From a virus (Duplodnaviria; Heunggongvirae; Uroviricota; Caudoviricetes), in IMG/VR virus record IMGVR_UViG_2563366982_000005: a stretch of DNA of 25,963 nucleotides; one strand, 5' to 3'. Made by a program: the position numbers and the translations under genes. Shown here one piece after another: positions 4,533 through 25,737 of this stretch. The notes beneath the pieces were generated by a model. The model worked only from the letters and a program-made list of their open reading frames with translations, searched no databases and was not told where the DNA came from. Position 1 is the first letter of the stretch; each line of letters starts with the position of its first letter.

Positions 4533-4589
4533 AAAAGGGCGGCAGAGCAGTCACGGAGTAAAACTGATACCGCCAAACGTCACCAGAAA
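4533..4589 (-). ncRNA. dicF: DicF small regulatory RNA
   Basis: Minus-strand sequence UUUCUGGUGACGUUUGGCGGUAUCAGUUUUACUCCGUGACUGCUCUGCCGCCCUUUUU matches the DicF sRNA as I recall it, ending in a GC stem plus U-run intrinsic terminator; positioned between ydfC-like genes and dicB. Confidence 0.7.
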
Positions 4590-18033: not shown

Positions 18034-18408
18034 ATGCTCATAGATTTGGTTTTACCTTACCCGCCGACGGTGAACACTTACTGGCGACGCCGTGGCAGCA
18101 CATATTTTATCTCGGAGGAGGGAAAGCGTTATCGCCGGGCTGTGGCGCTTATTGTTCGCCAGCAGCGGCTGAAATTAAGCCTGTCCGGAAGGCTGGCGAT
18201 AAAGGTGATTGCAGAGCCACCGGATAAGCGTCGTCGCGACCTGGACAATATCCTGAAAGCACCGCTGGATGCGCTGACGCATGCGGGAGTGTTAATGGAC
18301 GATGAGCAGTTTGATGAAATCAATATCGTTCGTGGTCAGCCAGTATCTGGTGGACGTATGGGGGTGAAGATTTACCCCATAATGCATGAAGAGCAGGTCA
18401 AAAAATGA
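18034..18408 (+). CDS. rusA: Holliday junction resolvase RusA
   Basis: 124-aa ORF with AGAGG SD; RRRDLDN motif and overall pattern as in RusA; immediately upstream of Q, typical lambdoid position. Confidence 0.8.
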   Translation: MLIDLVLPYPPTVNTYWRRRGSTYFISEEGKRYRRAVALIVRQQRLKLSLSGRLAIKVIAEPPDKRRRDLDNILKAPLDALTHAGVLMDDEQFDEINIVRGQPVSGGRMGVKIYPIMHEEQVKK

Positions 18409-19226
18409 AACTGGAAGATTTACCGAAATACTACTCCCCAAAATCCCCTGGCCTGACCGATGCATCGGCCTCAACGTCAAAAGATGCGCTGAGTATCACT
18501 GATGTGATGGCCGCGCAGGGCATGACACAGAATCGGGCTGAGATGGGGTTTTCTGCGTTCCTGGGGAAAATGGGCATCAGTATGAATGACAGGGCGCGGG
18601 CAACAGAATTACTGGCAGATTATGCACTCAGTCGGTGCGATCGTGTGGCGGCGTTGAGAAAACTTCCGGCAGAAATAAAACCGGTAGTGATGCGCATTAT
18701 GGCTTCGTATGCGTTTGAAGATTATGCCCGTAGCGCGGCGAGCAAAAAACAGTGCCCCTGCTGTCACGGAAAAAAATTTATTGAAAGCGAGGTTTTTACA
18801 AACAAGATCCAGTATCCGGATGGTAAGCCACCAGTGTGGGCAAAGTGCACAAAAGGCGTGTATCCGTCTTACTGGGAAGAATGGAAAAAAGTCAGGGAGG
18901 TGGTAAAAGTTGCCTGTCCGGAGTGTGGCGGAAAGGGTGAGGTTTCCACCGCCTGTAAGGATTGCCGTGGGCGTGGTGTCGCCATTCATCGTGAAGAGTC
19001 GGTAAAACGTGGTATGCCTGTTATCAGAGATTGCCAGCGTTGTGGTGGTCGTGGCTGTGAAAGGCTGCCATCAACGGAGGCATTTAATGCCATATGCAAA
19101 GTGACGAGTGCTATCACGCTTGATACGTGGAAAAAATCAGTGAAACGCTTTTACGATACGTTGGTGGTTCGGTTTGACATTGAAGAGGCATGGGCGGAGC
19201 GGCAGTTAAAGAGGGTAACGCGATAG
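18405..19226 (+). CDS. Late-gene antitermination protein Q
   Basis: 273-aa ORF overlapping rusA stop (ATGA); multiple CxxC zinc-finger pairs (CPCCHG, CPECGG, CKDCRG, CQRCGG); followed by promoter-terminator (PR'/tR'-like) region. Confidence 0.75.
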   Translation: MKLEDLPKYYSPKSPGLTDASASTSKDALSITDVMAAQGMTQNRAEMGFSAFLGKMGISMNDRARATELLADYALSRCDRVAALRKLPAEIKPVVMRIMASYAFEDYARSAASKKQCPCCHGKKFIESEVFTNKIQYPDGKPPVWAKCTKGVYPSYWEEWKKVREVVKVACPECGGKGEVSTACKDCRGRGVAIHREESVKRGMPVIRDCQRCGGRGCERLPSTEAFNAICKVTSAITLDTWKKSVKRFYDTLVVRFDIEEAWAERQLKRVTR

Positions 19227-19308: not shown

Positions 19309-19330
19309 CCCGCCGCCTGGCGGGTTTTTT
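19309..19330 (+). terminator. tR'-like intrinsic terminator downstream of Q
   Basis: CCCGCC-GCCT-GGCGGG followed by TTTTTT, about 80 bp downstream of Q stop; a late promoter (PR'/qut) is expected in 19227-19308 but not confidently resolved. Confidence 0.55.
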
Positions 19331-19800: not shown

Positions 19801-20859
19801 ATGCTTAATACTGTAAAAATATCCAGTTGTGAGTTAATCAACGCCGACTGCCTGGAATTTATCCGGTCGTTACCCGAAAATTCTGTTGACCTGATAGTCA
19901 CGGACCCGCCGTACTTTAAAGTGAAGCCTGAGGGCTGGGATAACCAGTGGAAGGGCGACGATGATTACCTGAAGTGGCTGGACCAGTGTCTGGCGCAGTT
20001 CTGGCGGGTGCTGAAACCTGCCGGAAGTCTTTACCTGTTCTGTGGTCATCGCCTGGCATCTGATATCGAAATCATGATGCGTGAACGCTTCAGTGTGCTG
20101 AACCATATTATCTGGGCAAAGCCGTCCGGACGCTGGAACGGGTGCAACAAGGAAAGCCTGCGGGCGTATTTCCCCGCCACAGAGCGCATTCTGTTCGCGG
20201 AACATTATCAGGGGCCGTATCGTCCGAAAGATGCCGGGTATGAGGCGAAGGGCAGGGCACTGAAACAGCATGTGATGGCCCCGCTGATTGCTTACTTTCG
20301 TGATGCGCGCGCTGCCCTGGGGATAACGGCAAAACAGATAGTGGATGCCACAGGAAAGAAAAACATGGTGTCGCACTGGTTCAGTGCCAGTCAGTGGCAG
20401 CTGCCGAACGAAAGTGATTATCTGAAATTACAGGCGCTGTTTGCCCGGGTGGCAGAAGAGAAGCATCAGCGGGGTGAACTGGAAAAGCCCCACCACCAGC
20501 TGCTGGAGACGTATACTTCACTGAACCGGCAGTATGCGGAACTGCAGAGTGAATATAAGCATCTGCGGCGGTATTTTGGCGTGACGGCGCAGGTGCCGTA
20601 CACGGATGTGTGGACGCATAAACCGGTGCAGTACTATCCCGGGAAACATCCGTGCGAAAAACCGGCAGAAATGCTGCAGCAGATAATCAGTGCGAGCAGT
20701 CGTCCGGGTGACCTGGTTGCAGATTTCTTCATGGGGTCGGGTTCGACAGTCAAAGCCGCGATGGCGCTGGGGCGTCGTGCTACAGGCGTTGAGCTGGAGA
20801 CTGAACGTTTTGAACAGACGGTCAGGGAAGTTCAGGATTTAGCCAGTCAGAACGGATGA
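19801..20859 (+). CDS. Orphan DNA methyltransferase (amino-MTase, DPPY motif IV before FxGSGST motif I)
   Basis: 352 aa; VTDPPYF near N-terminus and FFMGSGST near C-terminus, the circularly permuted order of beta-class N6-adenine/N4-cytosine MTases; no adjacent restriction endonuclease gene seen. Confidence 0.8.
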   Translation: MLNTVKISSCELINADCLEFIRSLPENSVDLIVTDPPYFKVKPEGWDNQWKGDDDYLKWLDQCLAQFWRVLKPAGSLYLFCGHRLASDIEIMMRERFSVLNHIIWAKPSGRWNGCNKESLRAYFPATERILFAEHYQGPYRPKDAGYEAKGRALKQHVMAPLIAYFRDARAALGITAKQIVDATGKKNMVSHWFSASQWQLPNESDYLKLQALFARVAEEKHQRGELEKPHHQLLETYTSLNRQYAELQSEYKHLRRYFGVTAQVPYTDVWTHKPVQYYPGKHPCEKPAEMLQQIISASSRPGDLVADFFMGSGSTVKAAMALGRRATGVELETERFEQTVREVQDLASQNG

Positions 20860-20899: not shown

Positions 20900-20975
20900 G
20901 GCCCTTTAGCTCAGTGGTGAGAGCGAGCGACTCATAATCGCCAGGTCGCTGGTTCAAATCCAGCAAGGGCCACCA
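20900..20975 (+). tRNA. tRNA with CAU anticodon (Ile2-lysidine or Met type)
   Basis: 76 nt, acceptor stem GGCCCTT/AAGGGCC, anticodon loop CTCATAA, T-loop GGTTCAAATCC, 3' CCA encoded. Confidence 0.8.
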
Positions 20976-20984
20976 TATCACATA

Positions 20985-21061
20985 CCGCCATTAGCTCATC
21001 GGGATAGAGCGCCAGCCTTCGAAGCTGGTTGCGCGGGGTTCGAGTCCTCGATGGCGGTCCA
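20985..21061 (+). tRNA. tRNA-Arg (anticodon UCG)
   Basis: 77 nt, acceptor CCGCCAT/ATGGCGG, anticodon loop CTTCGAA, T-loop GGTTCGAGTCC, CCA encoded. Confidence 0.75.
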
Positions 21062-21075
21062 TTTATCGGCATTCT

Positions 21076-21152
21076 GCGTTGTTAGCTCAGCCGGACAGAG
21101 CAATTGCCTTCTAAGCAATCGGTCACTGGTTCGAATCCAGTACAACGCGCCA
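21076..21152 (+). tRNA. tRNA-Arg (anticodon UCU)
   Basis: 77 nt, acceptor GCGTTGT/ACAACGC, anticodon loop CTTCTAA, T-loop GGTTCGAATCC, CCA encoded. Confidence 0.8.
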
Positions 21153-21322
21153 GACTTATTTTTCCCGGCTCGCTTTTGCGGGCCTTTTTTGTATCCGCGC
21201 CACGCCCGGCGCATATCAACCACAGAGCCTTTCGGGGGTGAGCTTACGGAGTGGTCAGTGTGACTTTCTCTGTGGGCAGATCGCTCCCGGGCGTTGGCTC
21301 ACCCACCCAAAGGAACGTCACA

Positions 21323-21754
21323 ATGCTTGGAATCTTCAAAAAGAAAACCCGCAGAGCGTCTGCGGAAATTAAAAAGTTTGAAAAACGCGATCTGGCACAG
21401 GCAGTGATTAACGCTGCATACCTGGTGGCTTATGCCGATGGTGAATGTGAGGCTTCCGAGAAAGCGAAGATCGAACAGGTATTACGTAACCAGCCCACCT
21501 TGTCCGCGTTTACGTCAGAAATTAATGCGATTAGCGCAACCATTATCGGTCAGCTGGATACGAACTTTAAAATTGGTCGTCGTGCGGCGTTACGTGAGAT
21601 CGAGGATGTGAAACACGATACGCGTGAAGCGGAAGACGTGCTGGATGTGGCGGTGGCCATTGCCGAAGCAGACGGCGAAATAGAGCCGGAAGAGCGCAAG
21701 GTGCTGGAAGAGATTGCCGGTGTTCTGGGCCTTCGTCTGGAGAATCATCTGTGA
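21323..21754 (+). CDS. TerB-like (tellurite-resistance TerB family fold) protein
   Basis: 143-aa frame from internal ATG with AAGGAA SD inside the 167-aa track ORF; repeated A-x-x-x-V/A-A-x-A-D-G-E motifs (AAYLVAYADGECEASE; VAVAIAEADGEIEPEE) typical of TerB-like helical domains. Confidence 0.55.
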   Translation: MLGIFKKKTRRASAEIKKFEKRDLAQAVINAAYLVAYADGECEASEKAKIEQVLRNQPTLSAFTSEINAISATIIGQLDTNFKIGRRAALREIEDVKHDTREAEDVLDVAVAIAEADGEIEPEERKVLEEIAGVLGLRLENHL

Positions 21755-21762
21755 CGGTAAAA

Positions 21763-21915
21763 ATGCGTCTGGCTGTGGTTGCGCTCCTGCTGTTTCTGGT
21801 GGTGATGGTGGACTTCAGCAGCCGGATAATGTCAGTGCTGGCTGACGGTGTGCTGGTGGCGGGTGTGGTGGTTGTTGCTTTCCCGTTGCTGAAAAAGAAA
21901 GCATCAGGCGATTAG
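21763..21915 (+). CDS. Small hydrophobic peptide (50 aa), possible membrane protein
   Basis: Hand-translated MRLAVVALLLFLVVMVDFSSRIMSVLADGVLVAGVVVVAFPLLKKKASGD; two hydrophobic segments, C-terminal lysines; starts 9 nt after TerB-like stop; below track cutoff. Confidence 0.35.
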   Translation: MRLAVVALLLFLVVMVDFSSRIMSVLADGVLVAGVVVVAFPLLKKKASGD

Positions 21916-21950: not shown

Positions 21951-22178
21951 CTCACAATTCAGGCGGTTGACTGTTGTCTGGTTTGCGGGGAGTTTGTTAA
22001 AAGAAACTGGCATGGTGAATCCCCCTGTGCGGAGGGGCAATCAGCAACTGGTGTTTTGTCACCGACCCTTATCCTTTCTGTGCGGGTTCAGGTGCTGATA
22101 CTGAACTCACCGGGAGGCACCCGGCACCATGCAATGGCACATAGTGCCACTCTCCAGCCCCTCTCCGGAGGGGCTTTT
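21951..22178 (+). repeat. Structured repeat element, copy 1 (conserved hairpins plus terminator)
   Basis: Shares with copy 2 the blocks CTCACAATTCAG..TTGAC, TTTGTTAAAA, GCATGGTGAATCCCCCTGNGCGGAGGGGC, CTGAACTCACCGGGAGGCACCCGGCACCATG and AGCCCCTCTCCGGAGGGGCTTT; ends in a GC hairpin followed by a T-run. Confidence 0.6.
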
Positions 22179-22369
22179 CTGTGCCGGATACATCACAGTT
22201 TCTGGAACCTTAGGTACTACAGTATCAGTCAGGGTGCTATATTTTCAGATGTGATGAAAGCCTGTCAGCAGGCAGGGCGTATCGGAAATGACCCAGTAGA
22301 GAAAACGTTGACTCAGATACCGGTGCTGAGTTACCGGGAAACCGGCATCACATGACCGCTATCCTTCCA

Positions 22370-22433: not shown

Positions 22434-22665
22434 CTCACAATTCAGTAAGTTGACAGTTGCCTGTCAGACTGGGCATTTGTTAAAAAAATTTCGCATGGTG
22501 AATCCCCCTGAGCGGAGGGGCGACTGGTGACGGTATAATCTCTGATTATCAAAACGAGAATGACGCGGGTTTAGTGGCACCGGGCTGAACTCACCGGGAG
22601 GCACCCGGCACCATGTGCATGATGATACAGATACGCGGCTTTAGCCCCTCTCCGGAGGGGCTTTC
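22434..22665 (+). repeat. Structured repeat element, copy 2
   Basis: Same conserved blocks as copy 1 in the same order, with divergent spacers; terminal hairpin GCCCCTC-TCCG-GAGGGGC plus T-rich tail. Confidence 0.6.
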
Positions 22666-22880
22666 TTGTGGGCAAAAAAAGCCCGAGTGGGTTCGGGCAA
22701 CAGCATGAGATATACATTTTTATAATCGAATGGATTTTAACCAGAATTCATAAGGCTGCGCAACTGCGCGGTCTTTTTCGAATTGCGGGCTGTCGTCTCT
22801 CTTCTGCCATTGTCCTGTAACTTCCGGACTTCAGCCCGCTCCTTATTTTACTCACAATATTATCCCGGCCGGGAGGATTC

Positions 22881-24422
22881 ATGGCATTTAAACACTATGA
22901 CGTGGTCAGGGCGGCATCGCCGTCAGACCTTGCGAAACGACTGACACAAAAACTGAAGGAGGGGTGGCAGCCATTTGGCAGTCCGGTGGCCATCACGCCT
23001 TATACCCTGATGCAGGCCATTGCGGCGGAAGGTGATGTCACCACACCTGTGGTGGTGAAGCCGTCGGATGGAGAAGGCGCAGTTATCAGCACCACCAGCA
23101 ACCCGGAGTATTACTTTGTTGTTGCCCTGGCCGGGCAGTCAAACGGTATGGCGTATGGTGAAGGGCTTCCGCTGCCGGAGACATATGACCGTCCGGACCC
23201 GCGTATTAAACAGCTGGCGCGTCGCAGCACTGTCACGCCGGGTGGTGCGTCCTGTAACTACAATGACATTATTCCTGCGGACCACTGCCTGCATGATGTT
23301 CAGGATTTGAGTAAGTTTTCACACCCGAAAGCCAGCGCAGCTCAGTATGGATGCGTGGGGCAGGGATTACATATCGCGAAGAAATTGTTGCCGTTTATTC
23401 CGGCGAATGCCGGTATTCTTCTGGTTCCGTGCTGCCGTGGTGGTTCTGCATTTTTGGCGGGCGATGAAGGTACCTTCAGCGAATCCACCGGCGCAAGCGA
23501 GACCTCGGCACGCTGGGGTGTAGATAAGCCACTGTACAAGGACCTGCTTACCCGTACTCAGGCCGCACTGAAGGCCAACCCTAAAAATATTCTGCTTGCA
23601 GTGGTCTGGATGCAGGGCGAGTTTGATTTGAAACAGGGTGCATACGCCACTCAGCCGGGGCTGTTTGATTCCATGGTGGAAAAATATCGTTCTGACCTGT
23701 CGGAATTCGGAGGTCAGTGTCTCGGGGGCTCTCCGTCATCGGTTCCCTGGATTTGTGGCGACACGACCTACTACTGGAAGCAGACTTATTCTTCGCAATA
23801 CGATGCGGTGTATGGTGCATACAAGACGAAATCCGCAAAAAAAATCTTCTTTGTGCCGTTTATGACGGATGAAAACGGGCGAAATGTGGGTACCAACGAG
23901 CCGTCAGAAGATCCGGATGTTGCGGATATTGGGTATTACGGAGCCGGTGGTCGAACGGACGCCAAAACCTGGACGACGGCTGACCGTAAAACGCATTTTG
24001 GATCATGGGCACGTCGTGGGATTATTTCCGACCGTCTGGCAACGGCGATTCTTGTGCATGCCGGGAGAAACGCTGAATTCATTACCGGAAAACAGCCTGA
24101 TACGGTGAAGCCCACCGGACCTTCCGGTGAAGGTACGGAGAGAGAGCCGGAAGCCCCGGTCAGTAACCGAACCCTGATGAGTCTGCTGGCGTCCGGCGAA
24201 GACCTGGCATCACAGGGCTGGCGCTATTATCACAAACCGGCGAGCGGAGACAATGTTAACAAAAACATTGCTGAAGCGGTGGTCAGTGATGCGGGGGCTA
24301 CGGGAGGTAAGGCCCTGCAACTGAATAAACCGGAAAACCACATCTGGTTTCTGGAGCATGATGCAGCCGGACAGGGAGTGGAGTTACTGAAGAAGGGGGG
24401 GACGTGTGAGCGTACGGTTTAA
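22881..24422 (+). CDS. NanS-p-like esterase (DUF1737 N-terminus plus sialate O-acetylesterase/SASA-type domain)
   Basis: 513 aa; GGAGG SD; GQSN motif (VALAGQSNGMAYGEG) characteristic of SASA/SGNH-like carbohydrate esterases; position upstream of lysis genes as for nanS-p in Stx phages (recalled). Confidence 0.7.
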   Translation: MAFKHYDVVRAASPSDLAKRLTQKLKEGWQPFGSPVAITPYTLMQAIAAEGDVTTPVVVKPSDGEGAVISTTSNPEYYFVVALAGQSNGMAYGEGLPLPETYDRPDPRIKQLARRSTVTPGGASCNYNDIIPADHCLHDVQDLSKFSHPKASAAQYGCVGQGLHIAKKLLPFIPANAGILLVPCCRGGSAFLAGDEGTFSESTGASETSARWGVDKPLYKDLLTRTQAALKANPKNILLAVVWMQGEFDLKQGAYATQPGLFDSMVEKYRSDLSEFGGQCLGGSPSSVPWICGDTTYYWKQTYSSQYDAVYGAYKTKSAKKIFFVPFMTDENGRNVGTNEPSEDPDVADIGYYGAGGRTDAKTWTTADRKTHFGSWARRGIISDRLATAILVHAGRNAEFITGKQPDTVKPTGPSGEGTEREPEAPVSNRTLMSLLASGEDLASQGWRYYHKPASGDNVNKNIAEAVVSDAGATGGKALQLNKPENHIWFLEHDAAGQGVELLKKGGTCERTV

Positions 24423-24843
24423 GTTGCCGGGTTCACTGGTGCCGAATCAGTTTGCCCTGGGCATTTACTGGCAGTTGTCGTCCCTGCCGGAGGGAGTGAC
24501 GCTGGCAGAGGAAGGCAACGACATGCTGATGTCCTTCTTCCTGCAGACGGATGCGACGAACCTGAACGCGATGCACCACAAGAAGCCGAATGCGAAGCTG
24601 GATACGTTCGGGGTCTTTGATAACGGATGGCACACACTGGCTTTTGAGTTTGCCGGAAACAACAGCATTCAGGTGACGCCGGTACTGGATGAGAAACGGG
24701 GGACGCCGTTCACACTGGTGAAATCTCCGGCATCAGGGGCGGCGGACAAACTGCAACTGACAGGCATATCAAAGGCGGCGACATATACGCTGCTGATTGA
24801 CAGTGTGAAGGTGGAAGTGAACAACGCGGATGCCGCGGCATGA
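24406..24843 (+). CDS. Probable C-terminal portion of NanS-p-like protein as a separate frame
   Basis: 145-aa ORF starting GTG and overlapping the 3' end of the esterase ORF by 17 nt in another frame; combined length (~658 aa) is near the size I recall for full-length NanS-p. Confidence 0.45.
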   Translation: MSVRFKLPGSLVPNQFALGIYWQLSSLPEGVTLAEEGNDMLMSFFLQTDATNLNAMHHKKPNAKLDTFGVFDNGWHTLAFEFAGNNSIQVTPVLDEKRGTPFTLVKSPASGAADKLQLTGISKAATYTLLIDSVKVEVNNADAAA

Positions 24844-25445: not shown

Positions 25446-25521
25446 GCCTGCGCAAGGGACCATCGGTGTGTGCCGGTGGTCTTTATATTGTTGTGAGCTT
25501 CCGGATAACGGGAGACGGGGT

Positions 25522-25737
25522 ATGTACCAGATGGAAAAAATCACAACAGGTGTGTCATACACCACGTCAGCGGTGGGAACGGGCTACTGGTTCCTGCAGT
25601 TGCTGGACAGGGTTTCCCCGTCTCAGTGGGCGGCAATAGGCGTGCTGGGGAGTCTGCTGTTTGGGCTGCTGACATATCTGACTAACCTGTATTTCAAAAT
25701 CAGAGAGGACCGGCGTAAGGCGGCGCGGGGAGAGTAA
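25522..25737 (+). CDS. Class II holin (S21-like pinholin) with dual-start motif
   Basis: 71-aa frame [71 protein letters not shown]; two Met starts three codons apart, two TM segments, charged C-terminus; GGAGACGGGG leader. Confidence 0.8.

Follow-up and report, generated by a model that had tools for sequence, protein, structure and literature searches.

The virus record IMGVR_UViG_2563366982_000005 (IMG/VR; Caudoviricetes) is a stretch of 25,963 nucleotides (nt), here referred to as the window, in which two small overlapping genes encode a TerB-family protein of 143 amino acids (aa) and a hydrophobic peptide of the DUF3927 family. The pair is the phage tciA/tciB module, which is already named and annotated. 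A prophage of Escherichia coli MCJCHV-1, for which RefSeq annotates both genes, shares 100% identity with the window, and phage JLK-2012, with 95.9% DNA identity, has genes labeled tciA and tciB. The names originate from phage P1, where, according to the GenBank annotation from which we took the P1 gene data, tciA, tciB (54 aa), and tciC (35 aa) form part of the C1-controlled ban operon and were named “by homology.” We describe the two products, their conservation and pairing across phages, and a possible role at the inner membrane; the features of the window are collected in Table 1.

The tciA and tciB genes

Over residues 26 to 138, TciA scores 60.2 bits with the Pfam family TerB (PF05099; cut-off, 24.4; E 2.9e-16), and it also matches PHROG 632, “tellurite resistance” (E 8.8e-69). 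Residues 13 to 137 align with chain residues 19 to 144 of the solved Klebsiella TerB structure, 2jxu (E 4e-8). A confident AlphaFold2 (AF2) model built from 22 homologues (predicted local distance difference test [pLDDT], 87.9; predicted template modeling [pTM] score, 0.82) has eight predicted helices and is all-helical. Searching with this model, Foldseek returned two structural-genomics proteins of the TerB clan: 2h5n, the best match, with a probability of 1.00 and template modeling scores of 0.55 to 0.62 at a modest E of 7e-3, and 2ou3, a “tellurite resistance protein of COG3793,” with a probability of 0.91 at a modest E of 0.47. An earlier note, made from the letters of this DNA alone, had called the 143-aa open reading frame (ORF) TerB-like, and the Pfam, 2jxu, and Foldseek matches show that label to be correct. 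The two A-x-A-D-G-E motifs that it described are present, as AYADGE and AEADGE. Among phage TerB homologues, D39 and G40 of the first motif and D117 and G118 of the second are invariant or nearly so, and A114 is invariant; the paired A-D-G-E motifs of the TerB family are a proposed metal or ligand site. The N terminus of TciA is basic (MLGIFKKKTRR).

TciB had been thought unannotatable, a view that does not survive comparison with family profiles: the peptide scores 71.7 bits with Pfam DUF3927 (PF13064; cut-off, 25; E 4.8e-20), matches PHROG 1470, “TciB-like” (E 1.6e-24), and carries a RefSeq accession in the identical prophage. Hydropathy and the family consensus place two hydrophobic segments in it, parted by a conserved polar stretch, D21-F-(S/T)-S-(R/K), which reads D21-F-S-S-R25 here. 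D32-G33 is also conserved, and both ends of the peptide are basic, the tail here being LLKKKASGD. Overall, TciB fits the consensus of 34 distinct family members of approximately 49 to 60 aa, K-x-R ... LLFLVV-VDF(T/S)-..MS.LADGVLV..G ... (W/F)P..K. The part of the peptide with the strongest conservation, (S/M)xLADGVLV, includes the A-D-G triplet that is also found in the TerB motifs AYADGE and AEADGE; this likeness may be a coincidence.

The downstream hydrophobic ORF with a KKK tail that the earlier note had reported is real and ends at 21915, while its start requires revision. The note had counted 50 aa and a gap of 9 nt after tciA, using the ATG at 21763, which lies 8 nt, not 9, past the last base of the tciA stop codon (21754). 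GTG 21751 is most likely the true start, giving 54 aa. We take it as such because it overlaps the tciA stop codon as GTGA (21751-21754), because a Shine-Dalgarno-like GGAG lies 8 nt upstream, and because the overlap and a basic K-x-R N terminus, which a start at ATG 21763 would lose, are kept in homologues. A stop/start overlap joins the TerB and DUF3927 genes in 81 of 83 intact homologues; across these 83 loci the small gene starts inside the TerB stop by 4 nt (GTGA) in 47 and by 1 nt (ATG) in 32. Furthermore, a TGGA(G/A/C/T) element is conserved upstream of the small-gene start, at the same place in diverse junctions.

Table 1. Features of the window, in order of position
Feature	Position (nt)	Strand	Evidence or remark
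DicF antisense small RNA (sRNA), early prophage region	4537-4588	-	Full-length match, 76.7 bits
Late antiterminator Q	18405-19226	+	PHROG 127 and 25523 “anti-termination protein Q-like,” E 1e-111 or better; RefSeq “antitermination protein”
Terminator-like hairpin after Q	19309-19324		
DNA methyltransferase gene	19801-20859	+	
Three tRNA genes (CAT, Arg-TCG, Arg-TCT) directly upstream of tciA	20900-21152	+	ARAGORN, Rfam; RefSeq tRNA-Ile/Arg/Arg
Terminator-like hairpin and T-run between last tRNA and tciA	21167-21184	+	
tciA	21323-21754	+	ATG start; 143-aa TerB-family protein, soluble, all-helical; RefSeq WP_001304604.1
First acidic motif of TciA, A-Y-A-D-G-E, residues 36-41	21428-21445	+	Sequence reading
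Second acidic motif of TciA, A-E-A-D-G-E, residues 114-119	21662-21679	+	Sequence reading
Shine-Dalgarno-like GGAG for tciB	21739-21742	+	Within last tciA codons; 8 nt before GTG 21751
tciB	21751-21915	+	GTG start; 54-aa DUF3927 membrane peptide; RefSeq WP_000216690.1
First hydrophobic segment of TciB, residues 7-20	21769-21810		Hydropathy, family consensus
Second hydrophobic segment of TciB, residues 26-47	21826-21891		Hydropathy, family consensus
L-A-D-G-V of TciB, residues 30-34	21838-21852		Within most conserved stretch
Alternative C-terminal region of TciB, codons 37-54	21859-21915		Three versions among close relatives
KKK of TciB tail	21892-21900		
Two tandem STnc100 prophage sRNA copies downstream of tciB	21981-22186, 22464-22673	+	165.5 and 139.7 bits
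AsxR (“anti stx2”) sRNA downstream of tciB	22676-22728	-	
Split large phrog_143/DUF6645 late-operon gene, two overlapping ORFs	22881-24422, 24406-24843	+	RefSeq: frameshifted pseudogene in identical prophage
Holin gene, start of lysis cassette	25468-25737	+	PHROG 9876 and 20, E 4.5e-40; RefSeq “class II holin family protein”

Conservation and pairing of the two genes

Conservation of the peptide ORF in related prophages had been set beforehand as a test of the proposed module. As close relatives we use the 80 IMG/VR loci whose TciA is at least 95% identical; tciB is open in the same register in 78 of them, a few of these copies having premature stops or length changes. The ratio of nonsynonymous to synonymous polymorphism (pN/pS) is 0.045 for tciA (38 alleles), indicating very strong purifying selection; for tciB it is 0.17 over codons 1 to 36 and 0.68 over codons 37 to 54. 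The latter codons encode three alternative C termini among the close relatives (AFPLLKKKASGD, LFPLVKKDMPGS, and LWPVIKRNSLHNA), and recombinant combinations occur. Toward the end of tciB, the DNA ceases to be homologous to many prophages, and a mosaic junction appears to lie inside the gene. Both genes are real, conserved, and under purifying selection, and the proposed module thus withstands the test set for it.

To survey pairing, we scanned IMG/VR and GTDB species genomes with a DUF3927 alignment, which gave 85 loci, and searched these with a TerB profile; the locus scans used narrower TerB alignments than one of 12 diverse phage TerB proteins, which were too divergent. Of the 85 DUF3927 loci, the 83 with an intact copy all have a TerB ORF right before the peptide gene, which strongly supports the description of the locus as a two-gene module. 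The 83 pairs comprise 35 distinct peptides, with TerB partners 31 to 100% identical to TciA. Both exceptions are 5′-truncated remnants, one at locus L097 and the other at locus L095, where the remnant has no start codon and directly follows a methylase gene (the L095 stump lies at about 2500-2650). The DUF3927 family is small, with 122 clusters at 50% identity (E <= 1e-3) among 1.84 billion representatives.

Most of the tciA/tciB pair is present in 790 of 5,426 complete E. coli genomes. Approximately 1,800 further complete E. coli genomes have only the 3′ part of tciB together with downstream DNA. Stumps of tciB from which tciA has been deleted are found, for example, in CFT073 (43 aa; L013, 2469-2600) and WCHEC005215 (28 aa; L012, 2534-2620). 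Two E. coli K-12-like tciB stumps adjoin iraM, and RefSeq still names such stumps “DUF3927 family protein.”

Partners of phage TerB and genomic context

A recognizable DUF3927 gene also follows TerB genes whose products are only about 30 to 50% identical to TciA, in far more distant phages. Pfam detects it in P1 (E 7e-31), P7 (E 1e-25), the virulent N4-like phage SP-058 (E 8e-12), Salmonella phage Arash (E 1e-11), Pseudomonas phage Nican01 (E 1.4e-8), and Pantoea phage LIET2 (27.4 bits). In the virulent N4-like E. coli phage Pollock the gene is annotated as TciB-like and matches the DUF3927 profile made here (E 5.6e-28), and in the Erwinia jumbo phage ChrisDB it falls below the Pfam cut-off and matches PHROG 1470 (E 1.6e-19). 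The pair spans lambdoid prophages, P1-like phage-plasmids, virulent N4-like phages, and jumbo phages. The tciA/tciB genes of P1 and the terB/upf69.4 genes of P7 share with those of the window the families PHROG 632/1470 and Pfam TerB/DUF3927, the gene order, the stop/start overlap, and a 54-aa peptide; identity is 41% to the P1 protein and 51% to that of P7 for TciA, and 44% and 43%, respectively, for TciB. P1 differs in having tciC, of which no counterpart was found here (a tblastn search of the window with P1 TciC gave a chance-level match elsewhere, E 3.2), and in placing the pair in the C1-controlled ban operon, whereas the lambdoid prophage studied here has it in its Q-dependent late operon.

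By tblastn, TerB occurs in 132 phage records from many host genera. We inspected the neighborhood of TerB in a sample of 20 phage lineages and found that a membrane-protein gene adjoins it in 18. In 13 lineages (the window, JLK-2012, P1, P7, ChrisDB, SP-058, LIET2, pJN2-26, 5 LV-2017, pPE4, Nican01, Pollock, and Arash), DUF3927 comes directly after TerB. In three others, the Pseudomonas phages AF, Zuri, and Lana, the gene after TerB encodes a small single-pass protein, phrog_27356, which is unrelated to DUF3927 and has one N-terminal hydrophobic segment followed by YGxQT(E/D)R..KYA..VGCMV, two cysteines included (L005, 1932-2153; L011, 1943-2146; and L188, 1138-1353, respectively); its start overlaps the TerB stop in AF and Lana. 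The remaining two are N4-like Vibrio phages: MS02 has TerC directly upstream of TerB (PF03741, E 1.5e-19; L185, 1-597), and D505 has a 360-aa Na_Ca_ex homologue directly downstream (PF01699, E 4e-28; L007, 1999-3081). Publications have described phage terB as a single or “standalone” gene (PMC3728262, PMC8421299, PMC7824862). Unlike that view, our 20-lineage sample shows that phage TerB usually has a membrane partner.

Two of the DUF3927 genes that follow TerB are unannotated in GenBank and were detected with the profile made here, in Klebsiella phage 5 LV-2017 (KY271399; L182, 1123-1278; E 5.5e-24) and in Nican01 (PP179318; L184, 1135-1317; E 4.2e-17). Apparent fusions of TerB and DUF3927 (P0132, P0171, P0172, P0241, and P0301) have out-of-frame junctions or unrelated N termini, and we rejected them as frameshift or chimeric products.

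In the window, tciA/tciB occupies the cargo slot that separates Q from the lysis genes and in which Shiga toxin (Stx) phages carry stx. Because a terminator-like hairpin precedes tciA, transcripts that reach the gene must read through it. No sigma-70-like promoter was found on the plus strand between this hairpin and tciA in a crude consensus scan. Judged by this position, tciAB would be expressed mainly on the Q-antiterminated late transcript. In virulent phages, the neighbors of the TerB-DUF3927 genes are early or nucleotide-metabolism genes. In every context, be it the Q-holin slot here, the C1-controlled ban operon of P1, or the genomes of virulent phages, the module is part of the lytic program.

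We considered two further candidate elements of the locus and rejected both. JLK-2012, P1, P7, and ChrisDB share with the window tRNA genes beside the pair, but a scan of 25 other loci showed no tRNA in 20, most of the divergent loci among them, which points to a shared cargo position rather than to a part of the module. A possible antisense RNA over the 5′ end of tciA (minus-strand hairpin, 21366-21348; promoter-like sequence, 21571-21542) was put down to chance, as the hairpin is perfect in this allele alone and is lost in most others. Other observations concern the surroundings of the pair. The tRNA at 20900-20975 is tRNA-Met (anticodon CAT) according to ARAGORN versus tRNA-Ile for the identical gene in RefSeq, and the latter, with that anticodon, would imply an ileX-like tRNA with a modified CAT anticodon. 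A DicF sRNA is encoded in the early region of the window, and P1 carries a “dicF-like region” in the operon of its tci genes. A 2026 preprint on prophage Pas sRNAs includes a TerB gene among those conserved within 10 kb of most PasA/PasC loci.

A possible membrane role for TciA and TciB

We tentatively favor a reading in which TciB is the inner-membrane partner that tethers soluble TciA during lytic growth, so that the two would form a minimal counterpart of TerB-TerC. A soluble subunit with a membrane partner is suggested by other phages, in which the DUF3927 slot is filled by TerC, by a Na/Ca-exchanger homologue, or by a different small membrane protein. With no promoter-like site of its own, tciAB would be expressed chiefly once the prophage is induced, on the Q-antiterminated transcript, to judge from its place in the prophage. 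Translation of tciB is coupled to that of tciA: the GTGA overlap and the GGAG within tciA are both seen in the sequence and conserved, and such coupling would favor both proteins arising at one place and time. TciB would then enter the membrane by its two hydrophobic segments, and TciA would probably act with it at the cytoplasmic face. The weakest step is the role of this putative complex, which may guard or adjust inner-membrane or cation status during lytic growth, possibly meeting depolarizing insults such as superinfecting phage and pore-forming colicins, or premature depolarization. We propose such a role by analogy with ter phenotypes, with the TerB-TerC core, and with the Vibrio-phage TerB genes that lie beside TerC or a Na/Ca-exchanger homologue. 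“Membrane-stress module,” a term already offered in the earlier note, is likely a fair description of this putative role.

Several known systems combine TerB domains with membranes. In DjlA and in DUF533/YebE, a transmembrane segment of the same chain anchors the TerB-like domain at the inner membrane. TciA has weak but specific similarity to the DjlA N-terminal domain (NCBIfam E 1e-6) and to DUF533 (24.8 bits), both under the family cut-offs, and it is a member of neither; the anchor here would be a separate polypeptide, and TciA has no J-domain. In the ter operon (terZABCDEF), a soluble TerB likewise has an integral membrane partner, and TciA aligns nearly full-length with the Klebsiella TerB 2jxu. 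TerB is known to associate with the membrane, and TerC-TerB has been reported as a core complex (PMC11003894, PMC12054061, bioRxiv 10.1101/2022.05.11.491447). The ter operon differs in that TerC is a multi-pass protein, to which the 54-aa peptide has no similarity, and in that TerZ, TerA, TerC, TerD, TerE, and TerF were not found here. Since no other Ter protein was found and the membrane partner is unlike TerC, tellurite resistance is not expected, and tciAB does not amount to a tellurite-resistance determinant of the ter-operon kind. The RefSeq neighbors in the identical prophage (DNA methylase, tRNAs, DUF3927, and the DUF6645 pseudogene) include no ter gene. Bunzi (BnzA), Shango (SngA), and Dionysus (DinB, with the pore-former DinC) also join a TerB domain to transmembrane elements, with a proposed function in membrane survey. 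These are host defense operons with helicase, ATPase, or pore-forming effectors, whereas tciAB is phage-borne, consists of two small genes, and matches no defense model.

A number of observations weigh against the tethering of TciA by TciB in the lytic phase. AF2 predicts TciB to be one unbroken helix, residues 3 to 51, a model that leaves room for a single span as well as for the putative two-pass hairpin. We found no genuine natural TerB-DUF3927 fusion, and two of the 20 lineages inspected, PMBT3 and phiM5, have a TerB without an adjacent membrane protein. Given the crudeness of the promoter scan, a weak lysogenic promoter may have gone undetected. The module is often lost from resident prophages and is hence dispensable for the lysogen. 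In P1, tciA, tciB, and tciC are non-essential for plaque formation under CRISPR interference (PMC10695390), so any benefit of tciAB would have to be conditional. The literature that we searched contained no experiment on TciA or TciB.

The earlier note had also named toxin/immunity modules as an option; in such a module, TciB would be a small membrane-damaging toxin and TciA an antidote encoded upstream and translationally coupled to it, for addiction or abortive infection. Such a reading draws on the small size, marked hydrophobicity, and basic tail of the peptide, on an arrangement (partner first, small protein second, stop/start overlap) like that of many type II toxin-antitoxin (TA) operons, and on our failure to find an intact tciB without tciA. 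We nevertheless consider it unlikely. The pair is carried by virulent N4-like and jumbo phages, which need no addiction module; the pN/pS of tciA marks its product as far more conserved than usual antitoxins; and where TerB lacks DUF3927, its place is taken by TerC, a Na/Ca exchanger, or some other membrane protein, a pattern that suits interchangeable membrane partners of a soluble subunit better than a toxin with its antidote. Searches of Pfam and NCBIfam revealed no toxin or antitoxin family in TciA or TciB and no DNA-binding domain in TciA, and the PADLOC defense and TA models gave only an insignificant match for TciA (E 0.0025) and none for TciB. In addition, the crude scan detected no promoter-like site belonging to the pair, and the antisense terminator-like hairpin within tciA is not conserved among alleles. 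The presence of the module in virulent phages also counts against lysogenic conversion, as these phages form no lysogens. By that account, tciAB would give the lysogen tellurite or colicin resistance or would inhibit cell division, in keeping with the membership of TerB in ter determinants that confer tellurite, colicin, and phage resistance, with the PHROG class of both families (“moron, auxiliary metabolic gene and host takeover”), and with the use of the same slot for toxin cargo by Stx phages. Conversion of this kind seems quite improbable to us: terC, terD, and other ter genes were found neither in the window, where a six-frame search gave one TerB match, nor in the identical RefSeq prophage, while TerC-TerD has been reported as the minimal tellurite-resistance unit (PMC12054061). 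The upstream terminator-like hairpin and the lack of a detected promoter-like site speak against expression in the lysogen as well, and the P1 name was assigned “by homology” only.

Two other explanations place the module in the lytic program. As a counter-defense decoy, phage TerB with its anchor would occupy the membrane site or ligand of host TerB surveillance (the ter operon, Shango, Bunzi, or Dionysus); TerB domains do occur in validated defense systems as proposed membrane monitors, and the module is found in many unrelated phages and expressed lytically. This proposal is purely inferential, however, with no similarity found beyond the TerB domain and the same insignificant PADLOC match, and the pairing of TerB with TerC or a cation exchanger in Vibrio phages suggests an intrinsic membrane or ion function rather than mimicry, so we give mimicry little credence. 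Still less plausible, and in our judgment very improbable, is that TciB tunes the timing of lysis as a pinholin- or antiholin-like peptide acting on holin triggering. Its two hydrophobic segments and charged C terminus would suit such a peptide, and several temperate phages have the pair just upstream of the holin and endolysin genes, but TciB matches no holin family in Pfam or PHROGs, the window has a separate holin, and in P1, N4-like phages, and the jumbo phage the pair lies away from the lysis genes; the constant neighbor of TciB is TerB and not a lysis cassette.

The tethering of TciA by TciB can be extended to a broader proposal, which we regard as doubtful. Phage TerB would never truly stand alone but would make up the soluble part of a two-part membrane device to which a membrane part always belongs, one that can be exchanged among DUF3927/TciB, phrog_27356, TerC, and a Na/Ca-type exchanger. 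TciB, in which D21 and D32 are conserved, would be a minimal membrane partner through which TciA could sense or adjust the divalent-cation or membrane status of the infected cell and so protect the lytic program against superinfection, colicins, and TerB-based surveillance.

For this window, tciAB is a common, named, and annotated prophage cargo, and its recognition is mostly bookkeeping. The wider meaning concerns phage TerB, which publications have viewed as a lone, probably inactive fragment of ter. The comparison made here finds that a dedicated membrane partner nearly always accompanies it and that strong selection maintains it in virulent and temperate phages alike. The tciAB pair is thus a small, tractable entry to the role of TerB domains, including those of the ter operons, Shango, Bunzi, and Dionysus. 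If the two-part device proposed above proved true, it would be a widespread phage takeover function, shared by temperate and virulent phages.

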